DNA of 64,000 bases from positions 97,374 through 161,373 of the forward strand of contig CALXSF010000004.1 of NCBI GenBank assembly GCA_944391055.1, in the 5' to 3' direction. Positions within the stretch are counted from its first letter, which is position 1. Every line of letters starts with the position of its first letter. Origin of the DNA: an uncultured Kiritimatiellota bacterium. GTDB lineage: Bacteria; Verrucomicrobiota; Kiritimatiellia; RFP12; DVOR01. Position numbers and translations under genes: made by a program. Positions 2,270 to 64,000 of this stretch are shown one piece after another. The notes below the pieces were generated by a model. The model did no database searches. It was given only the letters and a program-made list of their open reading frames with translations, and had not been told where the DNA came from.

Positions 2270-5473
<3,204 letters not shown>

Positions 5474-5488
5474 GGCGAGGGAAACAAA

Positions 5489-5525
5489 AAGGCCGGCCGC
5501 GACGCACGTCGCGGCCGGCCTTTTT
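5489..5525. terminator. bidirectional rho-independent terminator (GC hairpin flanked by A and T runs) between convergent carB and gspE
   Basis: aaaaaGGCCGGCCGCGACGcacGTCGCGGCCGGCCttttt. Confidence 0.55.
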
Positions 5526-5534
5526 CGTGGGGCC

Positions 5535-7223
5535 TCACTTGGCGTCTTCGGTGACGCGCATGAGTTCCTCGACGGAGGTGAAGCCCGAGAAGACCTTGCG
5601 CCACCCGTCTTGGCGCAAGGTGGCCATGCCCTCCTCCATCGCGGCTTTGCGGATCTCGGCGGAGGAGTGGCGGCCGATGATGAGGCTGCCGATGCGCTCG
5701 GAGACGCCGAGCAGCTCGAAGATGGCGCCGCGGCCCTTGTAGCCGGTGTTGGCGCAGGCCTCGCAGCCGACGGGCGCGTAGACATGATCCTGCGGGGGGA
5801 GGTGGGGCTGATCCCACCAGCCGTCCTTGAGGGGGATTTCCTTGCGGCATTTGGGGCAAAGGCGCCGGGCGAGGCGTTGGGCGAGGACGCCGGCGACGGC
5901 GGAGGCCACGAGGAAGGGCTCGGCGCCCATGTCGATGAGGCGGGCGAAGGCGCCGGCGGCGTCGTTGGTGTGAAGGGTGGAGAAGACGAGGTGGCCGGTG
6001 AGCGAGGCGTTGATGGCAATCTCGGCGGTCTCGCCGTCGCGAATCTCGCCGACCATGATGATGTCCGGGTCTTGGCGGAGGAAGGCGCGGAGGGCGCGGG
6101 CGAAGGTGAGGCCGATGTCCGCGCGGACGAGGACTTGGTTGATCCCCTTCATCTCATACTCGATGGGGTCCTCGGCGGTCATGATGCGGACGTTGACCTT
6201 GTTGATTTCGTGCAGGAAGGCGTAGAGGCTCGTGGACTTCCCCGAGCCGGTGGGGCCGGTGACGAGGATGATGCCGTTGGGCCGGGTGATGAGCTTGTTG
6301 GTGAGGGCATAGTCGCGCTCGCTCATGCCAAGATCTTTGAGCTGGACGAAGTTGCCGGCCTTTTGGAGCAAACGCAGCGAGACGCTCTCGCCATAGGCGG
6401 TGGGGCAGGTGGAGACGCGGATGTCGATGTCCTCGCCGTTGAGGCGGATGCCGATGCGGCCGTCCATGGGCAGGCGCTTCTCGGCGATGTCGAGGTTGGC
6501 CATGACTTTGAGGCGCGAGATGATGGCGGCCTTGAGGCGATTGATCTGCGGGGGGACGTCGACCTTGTGCAGCATGCCGTCGATGCGATAACGGATCCGC
6601 AGCTCGTCCTCCATCGGCTCCACATGGATGTCCGTGGCGCCCTGGCGGTCGGCCTCGGCGATGATTTGGTTGACGAAGCGGACGATGGAGGCCTCCTGCC
6701 CCATCTCGTTCACGTCGATCTTCGAGATGTTGGCCTCCGTGTCAGAGACCTCGTAGCGCCCATCCTCGATCATCTTCTCGATGGCCTCGGCGCCGACGCC
6801 GTAATACTTCTTGATGGCCTTGTCGATTTCCTCGGAGGGCGCCAGCCGGATGCGGACGTGTTTGCCGCAGGCCAACCGGATGCCATCGGCGGCGGCGTTC
6901 ATGGGGTCGCTGAGGGCCACGACAAGCGTCTCCCCCTCGACGGCCAACGGCAGCGCATTGTATTGGTGGACGGCGCGGGCGGGCAGGAGGCGAAGCGCCT
7001 CGTCGGACGGGCGGGCCTTGGCAAGATCGACGTAGTCCAGTCCAAGCACCGGCGCGAGCTTCTCCAGGAAGTCCGCCTCGCGGGCCATCTCCAGCCTGGC
7101 CACCGCGGCGGGCAGCCCCTCGGCAAGGTCGGCGTTGAGTAAAATCTCGATCTGGGCGTCCTTGAAGAGGCCGGTCTTCTTGAGCAGGTTGGCCAGAAAG
7201 GTCTGTTGCGCGGTCATGGGCAC
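5535..7223 (-). CDS. gspE: type II secretion / type IV pilus assembly ATPase (GspE/PilB family)
   Basis: Walker A motif GPTGSGKST, the tetracysteine motif CPKC...CEAC, and a T2SSE N-terminal domain. 562 aa. Confidence 0.9.
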   Translation of the reverse strand: MPMTAQQTFLANLLKKTGLFKDAQIEILLNADLAEGLPAAVARLEMAREADFLEKLAPVLGLDYVDLAKARPSDEALRLLPARAVHQYNALPLAVEGETLVVALSDPMNAAADGIRLACGKHVRIRLAPSEEIDKAIKKYYGVGAEAIEKMIEDGRYEVSDTEANISKIDVNEMGQEASIVRFVNQIIAEADRQGATDIHVEPMEDELRIRYRIDGMLHKVDVPPQINRLKAAIISRLKVMANLDIAEKRLPMDGRIGIRLNGEDIDIRVSTCPTAYGESVSLRLLQKAGNFVQLKDLGMSERDYALTNKLITRPNGIILVTGPTGSGKSTSLYAFLHEINKVNVRIMTAEDPIEYEMKGINQVLVRADIGLTFARALRAFLRQDPDIIMVGEIRDGETAEIAINASLTGHLVFSTLHTNDAAGAFARLIDMGAEPFLVASAVAGVLAQRLARRLCPKCRKEIPLKDGWWDQPHLPPQDHVYAPVGCEACANTGYKGRGAIFELLGVSERIGSLIIGRHSSAEIRKAAMEEGMATLRQDGWRKVFSGFTSVEELMRVTEDAK

Positions 7224-7250
7224 CTCATGGGATTGGAGATCACGGAAGGG

Positions 7251-8465
7251 TCACAGCTCCTCGAGGAAGCGGACGAACTCAGGGTAAATGGCGTCCATCA
7301 TGAAGTTCTCCCGGGCAAGGCGGGCGGAGGCGAGGGCCTCCCGGGTGAGGCGGCTGCGGCGATGGAGATAATCCTTCAGGACGCGCGCGAAATCCGCCTC
7401 GTCCCCGGCGCGATACTGCGCGCCCGCCCCGTAACGTTCGATGAGCGCCTGCGTCTCGCCGGTCAGGCAGCAGATCATCGGGAGCCCGGCGGCGGTGTAA
7501 TCGGCGAGCTTGTAAGGCACGGCCACATGGCTGTCCGGGAACATCGGCACGACGGCGACGTCCGAATCGGCCAACAGCTGCTGCATATCCTCGTTGCTGA
7601 GGTAGCCATGGAAACGGATGGAGGCGCACCCCTTGGCCTCCCGGCGGAGAAGCGGCTCGCGAGGCCCCGTCCCGGCAAGGTCAAGGCGGACGTTCTCCCC
7701 GGCCTCGGACAGGCGGCGCACGACGCGGACGACGGTTCGCAGATCGTAGCTCCGCCCCATGTTCCCGACGTAAATGAGGCGCAGCGGCTCCGATTCGTCG
7801 AGGCTGTACCGCGAGGCGCCGTTGTTCATCCGCATGATCCCGTGATAGCACAGATGGCGCGGCGCGCGGCAGCCATACCGCATGGCCAAGCCCAGATAGG
7901 TGACGCCGACGGCCGAGACCGCGTCGGCCAGGCGATAGGCGCGCCGGGCCGCGCGGTGGGCCCGCGCGAAGACCACCCTCCCAAGCAACTCCTTGGCCCA
8001 CGGCGGGCCGGGAATGAGGCGATGGAAGTTCTCCGGCCACGCGTCCATCACGTCCACCACGGCCTTGCACCCCCACCGCCCGCGGAAACGCCGGGCGACG
8101 GCGGCGGTCTCGATGGGCGGCCACGAGGTCAGCACCAAATCCGGGCGCGGCAGCTCGCCCGCCTCGACGGCGGCGACGGCCAAACGCTCCCACGCGGCGG
8201 CATAACGGCGATGGCTCCACGCGCGGCGCAGCCCGATGTTGTCTCGGTAAGGCAGCGTCGGGACAAGGCGCACCTCGAACCCCTCCGGCGCGCGATAGAC
8301 AGGCTCCAGCCTGCGGGGACGTTTGGTGGCGTGCGAGAAGTCGCTGCTCCACCAAACCACCCGGTGGCCGGCCTTGGACAAGGCGCGGCACAGCAGGTTG
8401 TAGCGTTGGGGACGCCGCCCCTCGCCAGGGAGATTGTCGAAGGGGTTGTTGATCCACACGTTCAT
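7251..8465 (-). CDS. glycosyltransferase family 1 (GT4-type)
   Basis: C-terminal GT1 motif ...PMFPDSHVAVPYKLADYTAAGLPMICC...; the start was moved to MNVWINNPFDN so it overlaps the nadB stop by about 14 nt rather than 98 nt. Confidence 0.75.
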   Translation of the reverse strand: MNVWINNPFDNLPGEGRRPQRYNLLCRALSKAGHRVVWWSSDFSHATKRPRRLEPVYRAPEGFEVRLVPTLPYRDNIGLRRAWSHRRYAAAWERLAVAAVEAGELPRPDLVLTSWPPIETAAVARRFRGRWGCKAVVDVMDAWPENFHRLIPGPPWAKELLGRVVFARAHRAARRAYRLADAVSAVGVTYLGLAMRYGCRAPRHLCYHGIMRMNNGASRYSLDESEPLRLIYVGNMGRSYDLRTVVRVVRRLSEAGENVRLDLAGTGPREPLLRREAKGCASIRFHGYLSNEDMQQLLADSDVAVVPMFPDSHVAVPYKLADYTAAGLPMICCLTGETQALIERYGAGAQYRAGDEADFARVLKDYLHRRSRLTREALASARLARENFMMDAIYPEFVRFLEEL

Positions 8466-8475
8466 GCGCCCGCCC

Positions 8476-10086
8476 TCACCACTCCTTCTCCGGCGCGCGG
8501 ACAAGGTCGGTGTCATGGGCCAGGCGCAGCCGCTCGGGATAATCGAGGGTGTAATGGAGGCCGCGGCTCTCATGGCGGCTCATGGCCGAGGTGATGATGA
8601 GCTCGGCCACGTCGGCGATGTTGCGCAGCTCCAACACATCGGCGGTGACAAGATAGTCGAAATAATACTCGTTGATCTCCTCGCGCAGATTGCGGACCCG
8701 GCGCAGGGCGCGGCGAAGGCGCTTGTCGGTTCGGACGATGCCCACGTAGTCCCACATGCACGTGCGCAGCTCCTGCCAGTTGTGGGCCACGAGGACGGCC
8801 TCGTCGGTGGGGACGGCATGGCCATAGACCCAGTCGGGAACGGTGACGTGCGCGACGCTCGGGACCGGCTCGGCGCAAAGCGCCTTGGCGCACTCGCACC
8901 CGCAGACAAGCGCCTCCAGCAGCGAATTGCTGGCCAGGCGGTTGGCCCCATGAAGCCCCGTGCACGCGCACTCGCCGATGGCGTAAAGGCCGGGGAGCGT
9001 GGTGCGCCCGGCGACGTCCGCGGCGATGCCGCCGCAAAGGTAATGGGCGGCCGGCACGATGGGGATGAGGTCGCGCGCCATGTCGATGCCGAACTCCAGG
9101 CACTTGGCGTAGATGGCGGGGAAACGCGTCTTGAGATACGCCTCGCCCTTGTGGCGGATGTCGAGGCAGCAATAGGCGTCACCGCGCGTCTTCATCTCGT
9201 TGTCGATGGCGCGGGCCACGATGTCGCGCGGGGCGAGGGAGCCGCGCGGGTCGTACCGCTCCATGAACGGCGTGCCGTCGCGCGTCACCAAGACGGCCCC
9301 CTCGCCGCGCACCGCCTCGCTGATGAGGAACCGCTTGGCCTTCGGATGGAAGAGACAGGTGGGGTGGAACTGCACCATCTCCATGTTGCGGATCTTCGCG
9401 CCCGCGCGCCACGCCACGGCGATGCCGTCGCCCGTGGCGATGTCGGGGTTGCAGGTGTATTGGTAGACCTTGCCGATGCCGCCGGTGGCGAGGATGACCG
9501 CGCCCGTGCGCACGGCCCAGATTTCGCCGGTCTCCGTGCTCAGCAGATAGGCGCCGACCACGCGGTTCTCGCCGCCCTCGCGCAGAAAGCGCGTGGTCAC
9601 CAAATCGATCAGCAGCGTGTTCTCGCAGACATGCAAGCCCTTGGTCGCGCGCACGCGCGCCGCGAGCGTCCGCTCCACCTCGCGCCCCGTGATGTCGCCG
9701 GCATGGAGGATCCGCCGCCGCGTGTGCCCCCCCTCGCGCGTCAGGTCATAACCCTCCGGGCAGGCCGAGCCCTCGCCCTTGGTGAACGGCACGCCCATCT
9801 CGATGAGGCGGCGGAGACAGGCGGGGCCGGCCTCGACGATGCGCCGCACCACGTCCTCATGGCACAGCCCGGCCCCCGCGTCAAGCGTGTCGGCCACGTG
9901 TAGGTCAAACGTGTCGTCCGTGCCCATCACGCACGAAATGCCGCCCTGGGCATAGGCGGTGTTCGCCTCGTCCAACGCCCGCTTCGTCACCAACAGCACG
10001 CGCCCATGCCCCGCCAGCCCCATCGCGGCCATCGACCCGGCGATGCCGCTGCCGACGACCAGGTAATCGCAGTCAATCGTTCTCAT
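8476..10086 (-). CDS. nadB: L-aspartate oxidase
   Basis: MRTIDCDYLVVGSGIAGSMAA FAD-binding N-terminus and a succinate dehydrogenase/fumarate reductase flavoprotein-like fold. 536 aa. Confidence 0.9.
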   Translation of the reverse strand: MRTIDCDYLVVGSGIAGSMAAMGLAGHGRVLLVTKRALDEANTAYAQGGISCVMGTDDTFDLHVADTLDAGAGLCHEDVVRRIVEAGPACLRRLIEMGVPFTKGEGSACPEGYDLTREGGHTRRRILHAGDITGREVERTLAARVRATKGLHVCENTLLIDLVTTRFLREGGENRVVGAYLLSTETGEIWAVRTGAVILATGGIGKVYQYTCNPDIATGDGIAVAWRAGAKIRNMEMVQFHPTCLFHPKAKRFLISEAVRGEGAVLVTRDGTPFMERYDPRGSLAPRDIVARAIDNEMKTRGDAYCCLDIRHKGEAYLKTRFPAIYAKCLEFGIDMARDLIPIVPAAHYLCGGIAADVAGRTTLPGLYAIGECACTGLHGANRLASNSLLEALVCGCECAKALCAEPVPSVAHVTVPDWVYGHAVPTDEAVLVAHNWQELRTCMWDYVGIVRTDKRLRRALRRVRNLREEINEYYFDYLVTADVLELRNIADVAELIITSAMSRHESRGLHYTLDYPERLRLAHDTDLVRAPEKEW

Positions 10087-56463: not shown

Positions 56464-57042
56464 TCAAACCGGCAACGCAGGCAAGGCGAATCTTCCCCTC
56501 CCCCACTCCATCAAAGCAGCGACGGAAGTATGAGAGGCGACGGGCTCGGTGGGATCCCAGATGAATTCCTTGTAGACGTTCCACGGGCTGTTGGAGAAGA
56601 GCTGCTGAACGCAGAGGTAGCCGTTGTAAAGGAACTTGGTGTAGGTGACCTGGCGGTTGCCGGCCATCTCCTTGTGGAAGACGCGCCGGCCGAGGCGGTC
56701 GTAGCCCATCGTAACGACCGTGTTCCCCTGCGTCCAGCGGATGGGGCGATTTTCGGCGTTGTATTCCACCGCCCATTCGCCCGTGTCGGTGAGCACCTTG
56801 GTCTGGTTGCCGTCGGCGTCGTATTCCGGCACGAAGGCGTCGATGGCGGTGTATTGGTTGAGCGCGTTGGCGGCGTACGCCCGCCCCTCGGCCACGGTGC
56901 GGTTGCCGATGTCGTCGTAAGCATACGTGAAGCCCTGCCCGGCGACAAACTGGTCACAGAAGTCATAGGCATAGGTCTCCGTCTTGGCAATTCCCGTGCG
57001 GCGGCCAAAACGTGGAGGCGTTGTCCGAATTGTGTATCGTAA
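56464..57042 (-). pseudogene. Rhs/YD-repeat core remnant (third, degraded copy) with no toxin tip
   Basis: YAYDDIGNRTVAEGRAYAANALNQYTAID...QGNTVVTMGYDRLGRR...KEFIWDPTEPVA is about 95% identical to the internal core of the two upstream Rhs genes, then diverges into a short unrelated tail. Confidence 0.7.
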
Positions 57043-57052
57043 CATTTGCCTC

Positions 57053-57580
57053 CTAAAGATAAGCACTATTAAAGCTAAGATTTTTCAACATCTTGACATA
57101 GGCTTCGAAGAACTCACGCAACTGGATTCGCTCATCCAAAAGTTGCTTGAGACGACGCCTCATGTTCTTAGACATTTTTACCCCATCGTTATAACATGCT
57201 ATTCTTTTTTCCACCGCAAATGGTTTTAAGAAGCCGTTTGTTACGAATGAGGCATCGCAATGTTCAGCAACATCAACGGCATTCCACAGTAGCGGGTAGA
57301 TATTGTCAAACGAGAGAGCCGGACAATATCGGGTTTTACACTGGAACGCAACACATGCGGGCTCTTTCCAGCCGCGCAAATACCAAGGTGTAAGGATGGG
57401 GCCTTTATACATTCTCTCTATTCGGAAACAATGATAATTTTCTGTGATATATAACGCATTAACCCAACAATCCAATGTATGCAACTCAACAAGAGGAGGA
57501 CTACCATCTTCGAGAGAAATGAGAGAAGACCATTTCCCCGAGAAAATAATCATTCGCGGAAATCCTAAACCCGGTTTCAT
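57053..57580 (-). CDS. Rhs-cassette small protein, paralog B of an unclassified Cys/His-motif family (candidate immunity protein for the 57582-58299 toxin tip)
   Basis: Low-GC. Start is 1 nt after the Rhs stop (TGAcATG). About 50% identical to the protein at 60241-60783, with the shared block GFPRM...LEDG...WVNAL.ITENYHCF...LTPWYLRGW..P.CVAFQCK..YCP.LSFDN.YPLLW. Confidence 0.5.
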   Translation of the reverse strand: MKPGLGFPRMIIFSGKWSSLISLEDGSPPLVELHTLDCWVNALYITENYHCFRIERMYKGPILTPWYLRGWKEPACVAFQCKTRYCPALSFDNIYPLLWNAVDVAEHCDASFVTNGFLKPFAVEKRIACYNDGVKMSKNMRRRLKQLLDERIQLREFFEAYVKMLKNLSFNSAYL

Positions 57581-57581
57581 G

Positions 57582-58299
57582 TCAATCAACACGTTTACAG
57601 TCCAAATATGTTTCGCTTGCCTCTCCGTCTTTCTCAAAGACGAGTTCTTCCACAACACGCAAAGAAGTGGAAATTTGAAATGCTTTCGCACCTGTGGAAT
57701 ATTGCAAATACCAAAGTTCATACCTTGTAAGTGTAAGTCTTGGGGAATTACCATGTATAAATGAATGTACTTGCGAAGACGTCTTCATTTCTCCACGGAT
57801 AGTCTGTCCATAGATGGGATTCAGGTTCCACGGCTGATTTTTAATCCAGTCGGGAATGTGTTTTCCAATGGCACTGTTTTGACGGATGAATTGATGGTGG
57901 ACATGTGTTCCAGGAGGGATCGAATACTGTTTACCATACCACCTCCGAGTGGCTCGCCACGTGTGGCTGCCAGTCTTCCAACACCCTTTGCCCAAGGTTG
58001 ACACCACCGATCGAAGAAGGGTTATGTCCGAAATTGCAATGCCAAGATTGAACGCACCCTGCACATAATGCCCATTGTAAAAGGCTTCATCCATGCCACG
58101 GATTGGGCCATAAACAGGAATCAACTCCTCAATCCCACTTACCGGAGGAGGCGCTGGTCTGTCCGGATCATAAAGGATGGATTCCGCCATGGCATTTGGC
58201 CCACCAAGTGTCGCCACGTCCAATCCCAAGATATCGTAAAGATAAAAACTATTCCCGCAAATCAGATAGAGGTTTCGCGAAAACTCCTCCTCCAGCGGG
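57582..58299 (-). other. Rhs C-terminal toxin domain 2 (unclassified; contains WKTGSHTWR...GTHVHHQF)
   Basis: Sequence diverges from Rhs copy 1 exactly after GRD; markedly lower GC. Confidence 0.6.
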
Positions 58300-60212
58300 T
58301 CTCTTCCGAGCCAGCGGCCATCGTTGGGGTTGTAATGGCGGTAGTTGTAGTAGACGAGGGCGAGGGCGTCGTCGTGGAACTCGGAGGAGAAGCGGAAAGG
58401 ATTGTCGGCGGCGCGGGAGCCGGTGGCGGCGACGGCGCCGAAGGGGGCGTAGTCGTAGTGGGCGACGGGCTCGTTGAAGGGGCCGACGGTGACGACGTCG
58501 GTCACGTTCTTGTTGCCGTCGTGGAGGAGGAAGGTGGCGCGTTTGGCGTTTTGGCGGAAGCAGAGGGGACGGGTCGCAACGGGCTCGGTGGGATCCCAAA
58601 TGAACTCCTTGTAGACGTTCCACGGGCTGTTGGAGAAGAGTTGCTGGACGCAGAGGTAGCCGTTGTAAAGGAACTTGGTGTAGGTGACCTGGCGGTTGCC
58701 TTCCATCTCTTTGTAGAAGACCCGCCGCCCCATGCGGTCAAAACCCATGGTGATGACTTTATTGCCCTGCGTCCAGCGGATGGGGCGGTTCTCGGCGTTG
58801 TATTCCACCGCCCATTCGCCCGTTTCCGTGAGCACCTTGGTCTGATTGCCGTCGGCGTCGTATTCCGGCTCGAAGGCGTCGATGGCGGTGTATTGGTTGA
58901 GCGCGTTGGCGGCGTACGCCCGCCCCTCGGCCACGGTGCGGTTGCCGATGTCGTCATAGGCATAGGAACGGGCGTCGGCGGAGGTCAACTGGTCGCGGAG
59001 GTCGTAGCCATACTGCTCGTCATTCTTGGAGACGCGGCGGCCGAGGAGGTCGTTGGCGTAGACATACGTGCTGAGGGCCGTCCCGTCGGGGAGGCTGTTG
59101 GTGACGGCGGTCAGCAGGTCGCGCCCCGGCTCATACGCCCATTCCGCCGTGAGGCCATTGGGATAGGTCAGCCTGGCCTTGAGGTCGGAGCCGGGCAGGT
59201 AGGCCCAGGCGAAGTTCCCGCCCTCGTTCATCGTGGCGAGGCGCCCGGTGGCGGGGTCGTAGCCCAAGGTCATCCGACGGCTGCCGCTCACGGAATAACC
59301 CGCGTCGCGCCCGTAGGCGTCGAAGTGGTGGGTGAGCGTCTTGGCGTACTCGCCCGTGATGGACTCCGTCTCCAGCTCGCCGTAGGCATTATAGCCAAAG
59401 GTGGTGGTGCCCACCGCGTCCGTCGCCTGCGCCTGACGGCCAAAGACGTCATAAACATAGCCCACCGCCGGCGTGCCGTCCGAGTACGTCTGCGACACAA
59501 GGTCGCCGTAGACATTGTAGGCGTAGGTTGTCACGTTGCCGCGCGCGTCCGTGCGCGTCGCCACCTGGCCAAGGTCGGTGAGCGTGTAGGCCACGCCATG
59601 GCCGTCGGCATACGTCTTCGAGAGCAAGGCCCCCGTGGCCTCATCGTAAGCCCACGTCGTCGAGTCGCCCTCGCCGGAAGCCTCGTCGCGGAAGGTCGTC
59701 ATGCCCACCTTCTGCCCGAACAGGTCATAATCATACACCACGGGATAGACGGCGCCACCCTCGTAGGTCTTGTTGCCGCGCACGTCGTATTCATAGACCG
59801 TCACGTTGCCAAGGGCGTTGGTGACGGCGCAGACGCGCCCCGCCTCGTCATAACCATAGGCCGTCGTCGCCCCCACGGCGTCCGTCACCGAGGCCAGGCG
59901 CCCGCGCGCGTCATACGCCCGCGCCGTCACGTTCCCGCGGCCGTCCGTCTCCGCCACCACGCGCAGATACTTGTCATAGGCCGTCGAGTTGGTCACGCAC
60001 GAAGCGCTCACCGTCTGCACCGTCACCCCATCGAGCGCCACCTCCACCGATGGGTTGCCCACCCCAGGGAAGGTCGTCGTCACCAGACCGAAGAGGGCAT
60101 TGGCGTAAGCATTGCACGAAACAACAATATCATTGCTGATATTGATCTCGCAATTGAGAAATCCTAATGTCGCTCTATAATCCCAAATATGAACTGTTCT
60201 TTGGATAAACAT
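57582..60212 (-). CDS. Rhs repeat protein, N-terminally truncated duplicate of the core, with a low-GC C-terminal toxin domain of unknown class
   Basis: YD repeats through to ...YNYRHYNPNDGRWLGRD, then a divergent 238-aa tip. The first 45 aa come from low-GC DNA. Confidence 0.8.
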   Translation of the reverse strand: MFIQRTVHIWDYRATLGFLNCEINISNDIVVSCNAYANALFGLVTTTFPGVGNPSVEVALDGVTVQTVSASCVTNSTAYDKYLRVVAETDGRGNVTARAYDARGRLASVTDAVGATTAYGYDEAGRVCAVTNALGNVTVYEYDVRGNKTYEGGAVYPVVYDYDLFGQKVGMTTFRDEASGEGDSTTWAYDEATGALLSKTYADGHGVAYTLTDLGQVATRTDARGNVTTYAYNVYGDLVSQTYSDGTPAVGYVYDVFGRQAQATDAVGTTTFGYNAYGELETESITGEYAKTLTHHFDAYGRDAGYSVSGSRRMTLGYDPATGRLATMNEGGNFAWAYLPGSDLKARLTYPNGLTAEWAYEPGRDLLTAVTNSLPDGTALSTYVYANDLLGRRVSKNDEQYGYDLRDQLTSADARSYAYDDIGNRTVAEGRAYAANALNQYTAIDAFEPEYDADGNQTKVLTETGEWAVEYNAENRPIRWTQGNKVITMGFDRMGRRVFYKEMEGNRQVTYTKFLYNGYLCVQQLFSNSPWNVYKEFIWDPTEPVATRPLCFRQNAKRATFLLHDGNKNVTDVVTVGPFNEPVAHYDYAPFGAVAATGSRAADNPFRFSSEFHDDALALVYYNYRHYNPNDGRWLGRDPLEEEFSRNLYLICGNSFYLYDILGLDVATLGGPNAMAESILYDPDRPAPPPVSGIEELIPVYGPIRGMDEAFYNGHYVQGAFNLGIAISDITLLRSVVSTLGKGCWKTGSHTWRATRRWYGKQYSIPPGTHVHHQFIRQNSAIGKHIPDWIKNQPWNLNPIYGQTIRGEMKTSSQVHSFIHGNSPRLTLTRYELWYLQYSTGAKAFQISTSLRVVEELVFEKDGEASETYLDCKRVD
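58299..60080 (-). repeat. 1.78-kb direct repeat A (Rhs core), near-identical to 61980-63761
   Basis: Long runs are identical with only scattered SNPs, for example the 59101-59160 stretch matches its counterpart near 62782-62841. Confidence 0.85.
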
Positions 60213-60240
60213 GATTAACGATTTAATTTAGTTGGGACCG

Positions 60241-60783
60241 TTACACTTGGGAGACATAGGGACTATTCATACTGTAATTTCTCACTATCTCAATATAATG
60301 AACGAAAAATTCTCGCAATGGTATCCGATTTTCAACCAACCCTTTGAGTTTTTTCTTCATTCGCTGCGACATCGGCCCACCATCCCCAAATCGGGCAATC
60401 CGAGATGTCGTTGTGAACTCGCCCAATTGATAAGCATTACATAGACTAATCGACACACATGACGCAATGTCAATAGCCCTCCATAAAAGAGGATAAACGT
60501 TATCAAACGAAAGCTGTGGACAATAACATGCCTTGCAGTGAAATGCCACACATGAAGGTTGGCACCAACCACGCAAATACCACGGTGTAAGATTTCTCCC
60601 TTTTTCCATCTTGATTATCTTGAAGCAATGATAGTTCTCTGTGATAAGCAACGCATTGACCCAATGTTTAAGCGTCGACACTGCAATCTGTGGCATTGCC
60701 CCATCTTCTAGCGTAACAACAGAGGCGAATGCCCCAGGGAAAACAACCATTCGCGGAAAACCAAACAGTGGTCTCATAATCAC
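60241..60783 (-). CDS. Rhs-cassette small protein, paralog A of the same Cys/His-motif family (possibly an orphan immunity gene)
   Basis: Low-GC; about 50% identical to 57053-57580. Confidence 0.5.
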   Translation of the reverse strand: MIMRPLFGFPRMVVFPGAFASVVTLEDGAMPQIAVSTLKHWVNALLITENYHCFKIIKMEKGRNLTPWYLRGWCQPSCVAFHCKACYCPQLSFDNVYPLLWRAIDIASCVSISLCNAYQLGEFTTTSRIARFGDGGPMSQRMKKKLKGLVENRIPLREFFVHYIEIVRNYSMNSPYVSQV

Positions 60784-60792
60784 TCCAAGCGT

Positions 60793-61404
60793 TTACAAAT
60801 TAGATAATTGATAACGCTCTTCAACTAAAATTGTTTTGAAGAATGTCCGTTTTGAAAAATGGTAACAAATCCGCCAAAGGCCCTCTTGAAAAAATGTTAC
60901 ATCTTGGGAAAATCGCACCTCCATCCCTGGCTCCAACAAGAAAATTGGTGCAACGCAAGAAACATTCCCTACTCTAACAAAAGGTTCCTTTAGAACCTCT
61001 GTTCGCAAAAAATGAATGTTGTAAAAGCCATGAAACCCAACCACTCCATCCGTCGCATAGATTCCTGCTTCGTTAAAACATCCCTCAGCATTCTCATCAA
61101 GTAAAGCCCAGCGTTTCTCTGTTACATTGTATTTCTCCACCGTAATCTCAACCGGAAGGGACGCGACATCAACAGAAACCCTGTTCTCATTTGAAAGAAT
61201 GACCCACACTGTAATTGGTTGACCGCACGAAACAATGCAAGACTTTTGACTAAAGCGACCTTGTAACAACAAATCATCAGCGGGAAAATCAATTTGCACG
61301 ATTCCCTCATCTATGTCTAAACTCGACAAACAAGAGAATTGTGACAACGCCATTATAAAAAGCCCACTTACCAATACATTTCTGAATAGACGTTCTCTTC
61401 CCAT
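60793..61404 (-). CDS. Rhs-cassette small protein with a signal-peptide/lipoprotein-like N-terminus (candidate immunity protein for the HExxH toxin tip)
   Basis: Low-GC; overlaps the Rhs stop. N-terminus LVSGLFIMALSQFSCLSS. Confidence 0.45.
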   Translation of the reverse strand: MGRERLFRNVLVSGLFIMALSQFSCLSSLDIDEGIVQIDFPADDLLLQGRFSQKSCIVSCGQPITVWVILSNENRVSVDVASLPVEITVEKYNVTEKRWALLDENAEGCFNEAGIYATDGVVGFHGFYNIHFLRTEVLKEPFVRVGNVSCVAPIFLLEPGMEVRFSQDVTFFQEGLWRICYHFSKRTFFKTILVEERYQLSNL

Positions 61405-61980
61405 TCCTGTTCACTCCCCATATTTTGTCCATGATTCGTTTCTTCGTCAAAAGTCAAATTCCGCTCATTTTGTCGGTCCCAAGCTGTTTTTCTCAACTCA
61501 TCTCGTTCTGTTTGCAACGATTTCAAGGCCTTGGCTTTTGCGCCGTCATATGTCGTTGCGCAAACACTTACCATAGGAAGCGAAGAACGCTTGTACGCAT
61601 TTAAATAGATGTTAATATGAGTTCTCTCATGTGCAAGTATCTGCCAAGACTGTTTGGCTTCTTCTGTCGCCCAACTTTTGTCTTCCAAAAAGTAAAAAAT
61701 CCATTTGGCCCGAGTAGCAATAGCCTGAACACAAATACAATCTGTATCACTGGAAACGATTGAGAAATCAATATCCGCCTCATTTATACTCATGTATGGT
61801 TGTGCCAAAACAGTTTCTGCCACACGGCCGTTTCGCGTTTCATACGATGGGATTGTTCCTTGAAAATCAGCCCACGTTATCTCTGATGCATACTCAAACT
61901 TTTTAAGTCCACGTCGATCATATTGCGAAAGGGGAGAATTATCAACGAACGAATAAAGATTGTCAGAATAATCTTCAACG
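61368..61980 (-). other. Rhs C-terminal toxin domain 1 (HExxH zinc-metallopeptidase-like)
   Basis: AHERTH motif; low GC. Confidence 0.6.
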
Positions 61981-64000
61981 TCTCTTCCAAGCCAGCGGCC
62001 GTCGAGGGGGTTGTAGTGGCGGTAGTTGTAGTAGACGAGAGCGAGGGCGTCGTCGTGGAACTCGGAGGAGAAGCGGAAGGGATTGTCGGCGGCGCGGGAG
62101 CCGGCGGCGGCGACGGCACCGAAGGGGGCGTAGTCGTAGTTGGCGACGGGCTCATTGAAGGGGCCGACGGTGACGACGTCGGTCACGTTCTTGTTGCCGT
62201 CGTGGAGGAGGAAGGTGGCGCGTTTGGCGTTTTGGCGGAAACAGAGGGGACGGGTCGCGACGGGCTCGGTGGGATCCCAGATGAATTCCTTGTAGACGTT
62301 CCACGGGCTGTTGGAGAAGAGCTGCTGGACGCAGAGGTAGCCGTTGTAAAGGAACTTGGTGTAGGTAATCTGGCGGTTGCCGGCCATCTCCTTGTGGAAG
62401 ACGCGCCGACCGAGGCGGTCGTAACCCATCGTGACGACCGTGTTCCCCTGCGTCCAGCGGATGGGGCGGTTCTCGGCGTTGTATTCCACCGCCCACACGC
62501 CCGTGTCGGTGAGCACCTTGGTCTGATTGCCGTCGGCGTCGTATTCCGGCTCGAAGGCGTCGATGGCGGTGTATTGGTTGAGGGCGTTGGCGGCGTACGC
62601 CCGCCCCTCGGCCACGGTGCGGTTGCCGATGTCGTCGTAAGCATAGGAACGGGCGTCGGCGGAGGTCAACTGGTCGCGGAAGTCGTAGCCATACTGCTCG
62701 TCATTCTTGGAGACACGGCGGCCGAGGAGGTCGTTGGCGTAGACATACGTGCTGAGAGTCGTCCCGTCGGGGAGGCTGTTGGTGACGGCGGTCAGCAGGT
62801 CGCGCCCCGGCTCATACGCCCATTCCACCGTGAGGCCGTTGGGATAGGTCAGCCTGGCCTTGAGGTCGGAGCCGGGCAGGTAGGCCCAGGCGAAGGCGCC
62901 GCCCTCGTTCATCGTGGCGAGGCGCCCGGTGGCGGGGTCGTAACCCAAGGTCATCCGACGGCTGCCGTTCACGGAATAGCCCGCGTCGCGCCCGTAGGCG
63001 TCGAAGTGATGCGTGAGCGTCTTGGCGTACTCGCCCGTGATGGACTCCGTCTCCAGCTCGCCGTAGGCATTATAGCCAAAGGTGGTGGTGCCCACCGCGT
63101 CCGTCGCCTGCGCCTGACGGCCAAAGACGTCATAAACATAGCCCACCGCCGGCGTGCCGTCCGAGTACGTCTGCGACACAAGGTCGCCGTAGACATTGTA
63201 GGCGTAGGTTGTCACGTTGCCGCGCGCGTCCGTGCGCGTCGCCACCTGGCCAAGGTCGGTGAGCGTGTAGGCCACGCCATGGCCGTCGGCATACGTCTTC
63301 GAGAGCAAGGCCCCCGTGGCCTCATCGTAAGCCCACGTCGTCGAGTCGCCCTCGCCGGAAGCCTCGTCGCGGAAGGTCGTCATGCCCACCTTCTGCCCGA
63401 ACAGGTCATAATCATACACCACGGGATAGACGGCGCCACCCTCGTAGGTCTTGTTGCCGCGCACGTCGTATTCATAGACCGTCACGTTGCCAAGGGCGTT
63501 GGTGACGGCGCAGACGCGCCCCGCCTCGTCATAACCATAGGCCGTCGTCGCCCCCACGGCGTCCGTCACCGAGGCCAGGCGCCCGCGCGCGTCATACGCC
63601 CGCGCCGTCACGTTCCCGCGGCCGTCCGTCTCCGCCACCACGCGCAGATACTTGTCATAGGCCGTCGAGTTGGTCACGCACGAAGCGCTCACCGTCTGCA
63701 CCGTCACCCCATCGAGCGCCACCTCCACCGATGGGTTGCCCACCCCAGGGAAGGTCGTCGTCACCGTCCGCCACGCGCCCTCCTCCTCAATCACCGTCTC
63801 CGTCTCATTTCCGCGCACGTCCGTGGACACCTGGCTCAGGCCCTCCGCGTCCACGCGCACCGACTGCGTCAGGTTCGAGACCGCGACGACCGTCTCCAGC
63901 CACGGCTCGCCGTCGACGAGGACATAGGCCGTCGCCGTCTCCCGCGGCAGACGCGCGCCTACCTGCTCGGAGACGCGGTCGCCCCACGCGTCGTAGACGT
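61368..64000 (-). CDS. Rhs repeat protein (3' end of the gene; N-terminus lies beyond the window) with an HExxH metallopeptidase-like C-terminal toxin domain
   Basis: Frame is open to the window edge with YD repeats (YDAWGDRVSEQ...). The core ends ...RWLGRD, then a low-GC tip containing QILAHERTHINIY. Confidence 0.85.
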   Translation of the reverse strand, partial: VYDAWGDRVSEQVGARLPRETATAYVLVDGEPWLETVVAVSNLTQSVRVDAEGLSQVSTDVRGNETETVIEEEGAWRTVTTTFPGVGNPSVEVALDGVTVQTVSASCVTNSTAYDKYLRVVAETDGRGNVTARAYDARGRLASVTDAVGATTAYGYDEAGRVCAVTNALGNVTVYEYDVRGNKTYEGGAVYPVVYDYDLFGQKVGMTTFRDEASGEGDSTTWAYDEATGALLSKTYADGHGVAYTLTDLGQVATRTDARGNVTTYAYNVYGDLVSQTYSDGTPAVGYVYDVFGRQAQATDAVGTTTFGYNAYGELETESITGEYAKTLTHHFDAYGRDAGYSVNGSRRMTLGYDPATGRLATMNEGGAFAWAYLPGSDLKARLTYPNGLTVEWAYEPGRDLLTAVTNSLPDGTTLSTYVYANDLLGRRVSKNDEQYGYDFRDQLTSADARSYAYDDIGNRTVAEGRAYAANALNQYTAIDAFEPEYDADGNQTKVLTDTGVWAVEYNAENRPIRWTQGNTVVTMGYDRLGRRVFHKEMAGNRQITYTKFLYNGYLCVQQLFSNSPWNVYKEFIWDPTEPVATRPLCFRQNAKRATFLLHDGNKNVTDVVTVGPFNEPVANYDYAPFGAVAAAGSRAADNPFRFSSEFHDDALALVYYNYRHYNPLDGRWLGRDVEDYSDNLYSFVDNSPLSQYDRRGLKKFEYASEITWADFQGTIPSYETRNGRVAETVLAQPYMSINEADIDFSIVSSDTDCICVQAIATRAKWIFYFLEDKSWATEEAKQSWQILAHERTHINIYLNAYKRSSLPMVSVCATTYDGAKAKALKSLQTERDELRKTAWDRQNERNLTFDEETNHGQNMGSEQEWEENVYSEMYW
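61980..63761 (-). repeat. 1.78-kb direct repeat B (Rhs core), near-identical to 58299-60080
   Basis: See repeat A; constant offset of 3681 nt. Confidence 0.85.

Follow-up and report, generated by a model that had tools for sequence, protein, structure and literature searches.

What does the variable C-terminal end of an Rhs protein do in an uncultured gut bacterium of the Kiritimatiellae, and what is the short gene that overlaps its stop codon? These questions are raised by the stretch of DNA analysed here (64,000 nucleotides (nt); hereafter, the window), in which an Rhs gene, its C-terminal domain (tip 1) and a downstream gene for a partner protein of 203 amino acids (aa) all lie on the minus strand. 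Every comparative test that we ran supported a metallopeptidase-like tip accompanied by a periplasm-facing immunity partner. We estimate at about 65% the probability that the pair represents an envelope-acting zinc hydrolase toxin and its exported, periplasm-facing immunity protein; the probability of a peptidase chemistry specifically is lower.

Tip 1 of the Rhs protein and its conserved motifs

The main Rhs/YD-repeat gene is represented in the window by its 3' part (61980–64000, minus strand), which has matches to RHS_repeat, YD_repeat and RHS_core. Its open reading frame (ORF) is open in frame 2 up to base 64000, so that the gene leaves the window on the right, and its stop codon is at 61370–61368 (minus strand). 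The repeats upstream of tip 1 were matched by PF05593 (E 3e-29, nine stretches) and TIGR01643 (E 2e-17). The full gene is present in the same contig from a public metagenome (L004), where the complete Rhs protein has 2074 aa (3804–10037).

Within the 830-aa part of the ORF that lies in the window, the full TIGR03696 profile (Rhs_assc_core, positions 1–76) aligned with residues 577–652 at 51.5 bits against a cutoff of 32.5. An earlier reading of this DNA, made from its letters only (the sequence-only reading), had placed the boundary of the Rhs core at RWLGRD. The core domain, however, continues for 26 residues past this point and ends in ...NLYSFVDNSPLSQYDRRGL, with the motif YDRRGL; RWLGRD is instead a boundary of recombination and of G+C (GC) content, which falls there from about 65% to about 41%, and homology to an orphan Rhs copy stops exactly there (61980/58299). 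As Rhs_assc_core extends to residue 652, the toxin domain begins at KKFEYAS (61904), and tip 1 comprises 178 aa (residues 653–830; 61371–61904, minus strand). At the end of the core, DRRGL replaces the usual DPxGL (R for P) and is the likely self-cleavage site of Rhs. In its repeats, core domain, variable tip and displaced orphan modules, the element is an Rhs polymorphic toxin by all the structural features tested.

Tip 1 contains QILAHERTHINIY, which bears the HExxH motif that had already been noticed in the sequence (H-E-R-T-H at 61631–61617; feature 61617–61631, minus strand). This putative zinc-binding and catalytic motif (H92, E93 and H96) is kept in close homologues and distant relatives alike: the three residues are invariant across the three close homologues, and, in an alignment of 25 sequences, HERTH falls on the HExxH that defines the family in about 20 distant relatives. 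In the same alignment, FDEETNHG (61428–61451, minus strand) matched the DUF922 signature (Y/F)DxETxHG, whose Y, D, E, T and G columns are invariant in nine DUF922 members above the Pfam cutoff. D153 or E155 of FDEETNHG is a candidate third metal ligand.

Relationship of tip 1 to DUF922

A word-indexed search with tip 1 (5.8 billion clusters) yielded three close relatives at 55–58% identity, all of them on short metagenome contigs; where the contig reaches far enough upstream (L001 and L002), the tip is carried on an Rhs fragment. PF06037 (DUF922) was the top Pfam match for tip 1 and for all four close homologues tested (E 5e-4 to 0.1), and the match of the tip and its close homologues spans the C-terminal half of the model. 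An exhaustive search of 1.84 billion representatives with the tip profile gave 24 matches at E 1e-3 or better. These were mostly DUF922 by Pfam (nine above the gathering score), and the DUF922 members were retrieved at whole-library E-values of 2e-6 to 1e-3. When the tip family was compared by hhalign with the nine members above the gathering score, the probability was 99.7% (E 8e-26, 153 columns), in a test that is partly circular as the nine came from the tip-profile search, although their DUF922 status is independent of it. KSW, HExxH and (Y/F)DxETxHG...Q..W are common to the 25 aligned sequences, and DUF922 has them in the same order and spacing as tip 1.

Judged from these alignments, tip 1 is a divergent relative of DUF922 at the superfamily level, though it stays under the Pfam threshold for membership. 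The earlier statement that the pair had no named family thus no longer applies to the tip, which can be placed beside DUF922/PF06037, and applies still to the partner, whose family is unnamed. A Tox-MPTase-type family had also been proposed as the one to look for by Pfam profile search. In the hmmscan of tip 1, neither Tox-MPTase1–5 nor HopH1/M91 was reported among matches listed up to E 10, and on this ground tip 1 appears to be a zincin-like lineage distinct from both. Tip 1 reached no curated NCBIfam family cutoff, genome contigs scanned with a profile of the tip alignment yielded no relative, and sequence searches of the PDB with the tip and with the DUF922 profile gave nothing meaningful. 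For DUF922 itself, a zincin-like fold has been predicted from a weak FFAS score, and HExxH is present in 100% of the members (PMC3650047). In our literature search, we did not find DUF922 described as a toxin domain.

The AlphaFold2 (AF2) model of tip 1 is of moderate confidence (predicted local distance difference test score (pLDDT) 69.9, from four input sequences) and consists of a three-stranded sheet, the HExxH helix, a short strand and a long helix that ends at FDEET. Small zincins have a beta-sheet, followed by the HExxH helix and then by a helix bearing an acidic motif, and the order of the elements in the model is compatible with this topology. Fold searches gave no confirmation of a zincin fold, with no metallopeptidase among the structural matches listed.

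We also observed a pair of cysteine positions in the family, one in strand 2 (C56/C58) and the other (C115) in the loop that follows the helix with HExxH. Both are occupied in 11 of the 25 sequences, neither in 10 and only one in 4. The pair is therefore concordant (both or neither) in 21/25 sequences, a count inflated by shared ancestry, and it is concentrated among the Rhs-linked DUF922-like members. As the two positions co-occur or are jointly absent, they may form a disulfide, which suggests an oxidising compartment; the members with the pair may likewise constitute a disulfide-stabilised toxin subclade.

The overlapping partner gene

The partner gene (60793–61404, minus strand) encodes the 203-aa candidate immunity protein and is recognised by its ORF, its syntenic homologues and its orphan copies. 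Its reading frame differs from that of the Rhs gene, whose end it overlaps by 37 nt, and it has GGAG 9 nt upstream of its ATG. Because of this overlap and the upstream GGAG, translation of the partner is probably coupled to that of the Rhs gene. The overlap, which the sequence-only reading had pointed out, holds well beyond the window. Each of the three loci with a close tip homologue (L001, L002 and L003) has a gene of 192–224 aa that overlaps the tip stop by 37 nt, its product aligning over the full length of the partner at 29–44% identity, and the 37-nt overlap is identical in five loci (the window, L001, L002, L003 and L013). No Pfam or NCBIfam family matched the partner, and a word-indexed search with the 203-aa protein returned only the self-match. 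Homologues were instead reached via synteny and then by profile search, which added P0005–P0008 (family P0004–P0008).

The N-terminus of the partner, MGRERLFRNVLVSGLFIMALSQFSC, has three Arg and a 13-residue hydrophobic stretch (mean Kyte-Doolittle 1.95), followed by SQFSC. The hydrophobic segment ending in a Cys that had been noted earlier, FIMALSQFSC, is indeed present at residues 16–25, and hence the Cys is Cys25. The AF2 model of the partner places a helix at residues 3–23. Together with the heuristic analysis and the L002 orthologue, this helix marks residues 1–25 (61330–61404, minus strand) as a putative export or anchor segment. The remainder is predicted to be an immunoglobulin (Ig)-like beta-sandwich domain (about residues 34–197; 60814–61305, minus strand). 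Export signals of the partners were judged heuristically, the lipobox being defined as [LVI][ASTVI][GAS]C or by PROSITE PS51257. The L002 orthologue has a canonical LTSC with its Cys likewise at position 25. The lipobox pattern was passed by P0007 and by the L035 and L037 partners, and failed by the L001 and L003 partners and by P0008.

Evidence for an immunity role

P0010, a tip that is Rhs-linked but distant (E 1e-21 in the profile search), has a partner homologous to the 203-aa family (hhalign 97%, E 5e-11). As the partner of so distant a tip belongs with the homologues of this family, the tip and the partner appear to have diverged together. In another locus (L013, 1665–2404), only a 52-aa 3' remnant of the tip is left, without HExxH, yet the partner homologue behind it is intact and again has the 37-nt overlap. 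Upstream of this remnant there is another Rhs tip, which contains a glycine-rich membrane-like segment, and then two small genes.

The partner homologue P0007 (35 member sequences) sits in an Rhs-free island of small genes. In L008 (6504–9180), and also in L009–L012, this island is flanked by topA and a SurA-like gene and consists of four small genes, which encode P0007 (GFAC), a transmembrane (TM) protein and two lipoproteins with canonical signals (LLGC and ISGC). At least three of the four have lipobox-type signals. The island resembles a set of orphan immunity genes against toxins that act on the envelope. The identical 37-nt overlap, the co-variation with the tip and the orphan copies without an intact toxin all argue for an immunity role: adjacent, co-varying and retained as an orphan, the partner appears to behave as an immunity gene of a polymorphic toxin.

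Probable site of action

At least seven of the 24 tip-profile matches are Rhs-linked. We inspected five distant Rhs-linked DUF922-like tips, and all five have a small gene with a canonical lipobox downstream, overlapping the tip gene or within about 85 nt of it (L035, VIGC; L037, VLGC; L038, MAGC; L039, LCGC; L040, LFGC). The partners of these distant tips are mostly unrelated in sequence. The downstream lipoprotein of L037 showed no homology to the 203-aa family by hhalign, so these partners are analogous and not all homologous. Most of the stand-alone DUF922-like matches have signal peptides. These observations point to the periplasm or envelope as the place where the toxin would act, and the comparison across distant tips is more decisive evidence for this than the partner in the window. 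A lipoprotein partner in 5/5 distant tips also gives a clear testable prediction on where the toxin acts. The proposal that the partner is a periplasm-facing immunity protein is thus favoured by co-occurrence, co-divergence, orphan copies and the lipoprotein genes of the distant tips.

From the motifs, family relationship, synteny, orphan-immunity pattern and export signals computed here, we infer zinc binding, catalysis, toxicity, a periplasmic site and neutralisation by binding, as follows. The Rhs shell would carry tip 1, which would be released at DRRGL through self-cleavage of Rhs. Zinc would be bound by H92, H96 and an acidic residue of FDEETNHG (D153 or E155), with E93 as the general base, and the tip may then act as a hydrolase on a peptide or amide bond of the target cell's envelope. 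Peptidoglycan peptides or envelope (lipo)proteins are candidate substrates, by analogy with VgrG2b. The exported Ig-like partner, anchored by lipid or in the membrane, would bind the toxin on the periplasmic side and block its action, which would protect both the producer and its kin.

Weighing of the alternatives

Several observations weigh against an envelope-acting zinc hydrolase with an exported immunity partner, besides the moderate AF2 tip model and the partly circular hhalign test described above. The Pfam gathering score (27 bits) was reached neither by the isolated tip (16.4) nor by its close homologues (13–21). No solved structure or biochemistry of DUF922 was found in PDB sequence searches or in the literature. 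In the partner of the window, SQFSC fails both lipobox patterns at position -3 (Q), and the L003 partner and P0008 have no suitably placed Cys. The lipoprotein-like character that had been ascribed to the partner stands as far as the charged and hydrophobic N-terminus and Cys25 are concerned; it is weakened by the non-canonical lipobox and by the absence of the Cys from two family members. 'Exported or membrane-anchored' is the safer description, and 'lipoprotein' is not secure for the window copy. As regards delivery, the Rhs protein in L004 starts with the hydrophobic MNVFGLLGAGIALAGAVWVG, which is preceded by no basic residue, and has no charged n-region, and the genes within 10 kb of Rhs in L004 had no Pfam matches for PAAR, VgrG or type VI secretion system (T6SS) components, nor is another recognisable delivery domain present nearby.

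These points must be set beside other explanations of the same locus. The simplest, that HExxH occurs by chance and the downstream ORF is spurious, could appeal to the frequency of short motifs and ORFs in six-frame readings and to the fact that neither the tip nor the partner meets a curated family cutoff. The conservation data effectively refute it and leave it a negligible probability, as HExxH is conserved in 25 sequences, the ORF is conserved over its full length at 29–44% and the synteny is conserved. A more serious possibility concerns the chemistry: the HExxH domain may not be a peptidase, being instead a hydrolase of another substrate (lipid, glycan or nucleic acid; zinc-dependent or metal-independent) or a non-catalytic binding module, and the tip would nonetheless be a toxin that is neutralised by the partner. 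HExxH and the downstream acidic motif are, however, invariant or nearly so in very divergent members, and the predicted order of sheet, HExxH helix and acidic-motif helix is that of a small zincin. With these two points against it, we regard a non-peptidase domain as unlikely.

The remaining alternatives concern the role of the partner and the direction of the toxin. The 203-aa protein may have an accessory role, for example as a chaperone, as a helper in export or as an adhesin-like Ig protein that is co-secreted, and immunity may come from the next gene, ORF180 (60241–60783, minus strand), which encodes a Cys-rich cytosolic protein of 180 aa. ORF180 comes directly after the 203-aa gene and has GGAG 5 nt upstream of its start codon (ATG, 60777); it is kept in all the contigs of the same species (L005–L007), and L002 has a remnant of it. 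Yet a paralogue with 53% identity lies directly after the unrelated tip of the neighbouring module (tip 2), where it is the sole candidate immunity gene, and in L035 the DUF922-like tip is not followed by any homologue of ORF180. Unlike ORF180, the 203-aa family co-varies with the tip and survives beside a truncated tip, which makes the accessory role very unlikely. It is also conceivable that the toxin is aimed at host or extracellular substrates and that the partner shields the periplasm of the producer while a Sec-exported Rhs protein is in transit. A gut-dwelling organism, an Rhs N-terminus that looks Sec-type or anchor-like, the lack of T6SS, PAAR or VgrG genes within the 10-kb flank of Rhs and the occurrence of certain stand-alone DUF922 proteins as plain secreted proteins would all suit this explanation. 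Against it stand orphan immunity-like copies in toxin-free genomes or loci and arrays of displaced tip and partner modules, both of which typify polymorphic toxin systems deployed between bacteria (Zhang et al. 2012, PMC3482391), and we consider host or extracellular targets quite improbable. An envelope-acting zinc hydrolase toxin with an exported immunity partner is thus the explanation that we prefer.

Organisation of the locus and the neighbouring tip-2 module

On the minus strand, the main Rhs gene with tip 1 is followed by the 203-aa gene, the 180-aa gene (ORF180) and an orphan Rhs fragment with tip 2. After tip 2, there is a gene of about 175–185 aa (inside a 233-aa ORF, 57053–57754) and then a truncated Rhs fragment abutting recJ. 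The 3' region of the Rhs core is present in three tandem copies (at 56537, 58576 and 62257) with 90–96% identity. The third core fragment (56464–57066, minus strand) is truncated: it diverges past ...WDPTEPVA, and the point where it runs into the 3' end of recJ marks the end of the Rhs array.

FtsZ encoded in the window has its best match, at 88% identity, in metagenome-assembled genomes (MAGs) labelled uncultured Lentisphaeraceae; the other matches are to MAGs labelled Kiritimatiellae or Candidatus Spyradenecus, several of which have isolate names referring to animal guts. The GC content is about 75% in the host DNA, about 62–67% in the Rhs core and about 41% in the region 60000–61980. Between 52000 and 64000 of the window, GC is nested in three tiers, with the tip/immunity cassettes at about 40–45%. 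Because of this nesting, the cassettes, and possibly the entire Rhs element, appear to have been acquired from lower-GC donors. Since the core domain ends 26 residues beyond the RWLGRD boundary, the cassette carries its own last 25 core residues: the first 75 nt of the low-GC cassette (61905–61979, minus strand) code for the final 25 residues of the Rhs-associated core, VEDYSDNLYSFVDNSPLSQYDRRGL.

Tip 2 (57582–58220, minus strand) makes up about 212 C-terminal aa of an 876-aa orphan Rhs ORF and is an unrelated toxin domain. It has a His-rich stretch, GTHVHHQF...NQPWNLNPI...HSFIHG, a motif pattern that we take to be reminiscent of HNH-type nuclease tips. Tip 2, ORF180 and the 233-aa ORF had no Pfam or NCBIfam match. 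The call of the 233-aa ORF overlaps the Rhs stop, and its real start is probably MKPGLGF, near 57580. The gene so delimited (57053–57580, minus strand) and ORF180 form the paralogue pair mentioned above; both are about 175–180 aa long, Cys-rich and without an export signal. Judging from its sequence and position, the gene at 57053–57580 is probably the cognate immunity gene of the tip-2 type, and ORF180 is probably an orphan immunity gene of that type, outside the tip-1 pair. The idea that the tip-1 module might have ORF180 as a second component was rejected, as the paralogue of ORF180 follows tip 2 and no homologue of it follows the L035 tip.

Relation to known systems and significance

DUF922 is mostly extracytoplasmic, with its stand-alone members having signal peptides, while tip 1 is located at the C-terminus of an Rhs protein and not behind a signal peptide. 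Unlike DUF922 proper, tip 1 remains below the gathering cutoff and belongs to the subclade with the Cys pair, which is mostly Rhs-linked. The function of DUF922 is uncharacterised, so the relationship gives tip 1 no mechanism. In architecture, the Rhs module described here is the same as Rhs toxins with Tox-MPTase1–5 or HopH1/M91 tips (PMC3482391; Salmonella Dublin SED_RS06335, PMC13556075). A YD-repeat shell, a core, a variable C-terminal HExxH domain, a downstream partner and orphan modules are common to the Rhs toxins with zincin-like tips. Zhang et al. 2012 listed no immunity protein for Tox-MPTase1–5 and gave Imm65 as the sole lipoprotein immunity family (PMC3482391). Unlike the Tox-MPTase1–5 tips listed there, tip 1 has a conserved partner that is predicted to be exported.

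In two T6SS effector–immunity pairs, VgrG2b C-ter/PA0261 and Tpe1/Tpi1, the toxin is an HExxH metallopeptidase that is toxic only in the periplasm, and members of the PA0261/Tpi immunity family, which differ between taxa, are soluble proteins, lipoproteins or proteins with a TM anchor (PMC6899460). The lipobox or anchor of the 203-aa family is likewise variable and matches these forms. The carriers differ, as VgrG2b is carried by a VgrG spike and tip 1 by an Rhs protein whose N-terminus is hydrophobic, in a bacterium of the Planctomycetes–Verrucomicrobia–Chlamydiae (PVC) group, and the predicted Ig-like sandwich of the partner is unlike the immunity fold of VgrG2b/Tpe1. The module would work like the known Rhs toxin–immunity modules and the periplasmic metallopeptidase pairs, and is an extension of them, not a new principle.

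A broader idea can be offered only tentatively, and we hold it to be doubtful: the Cys-pair subclade of DUF922 may be an unnamed, widespread family of envelope-acting Rhs toxins with fast-diversifying lipoprotein immunity, and in the Kiritimatiellae Sec-type Rhs proteins may reach the periplasm of neighbours without a T6SS. If true, it would give the first functional handle on DUF922 and an undescribed route of Rhs delivery in PVC-group bacteria. Confirmation of the toxin–immunity pair described here would place DUF922 in its first functional context, that of an antibacterial envelope-directed zinc hydrolase, and the Rhs repertoire would gain both a named family of tips and a new family of Ig-like immunity proteins. 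It would also document interbacterial weaponry for the uncultured Kiritimatiellae of the gut.

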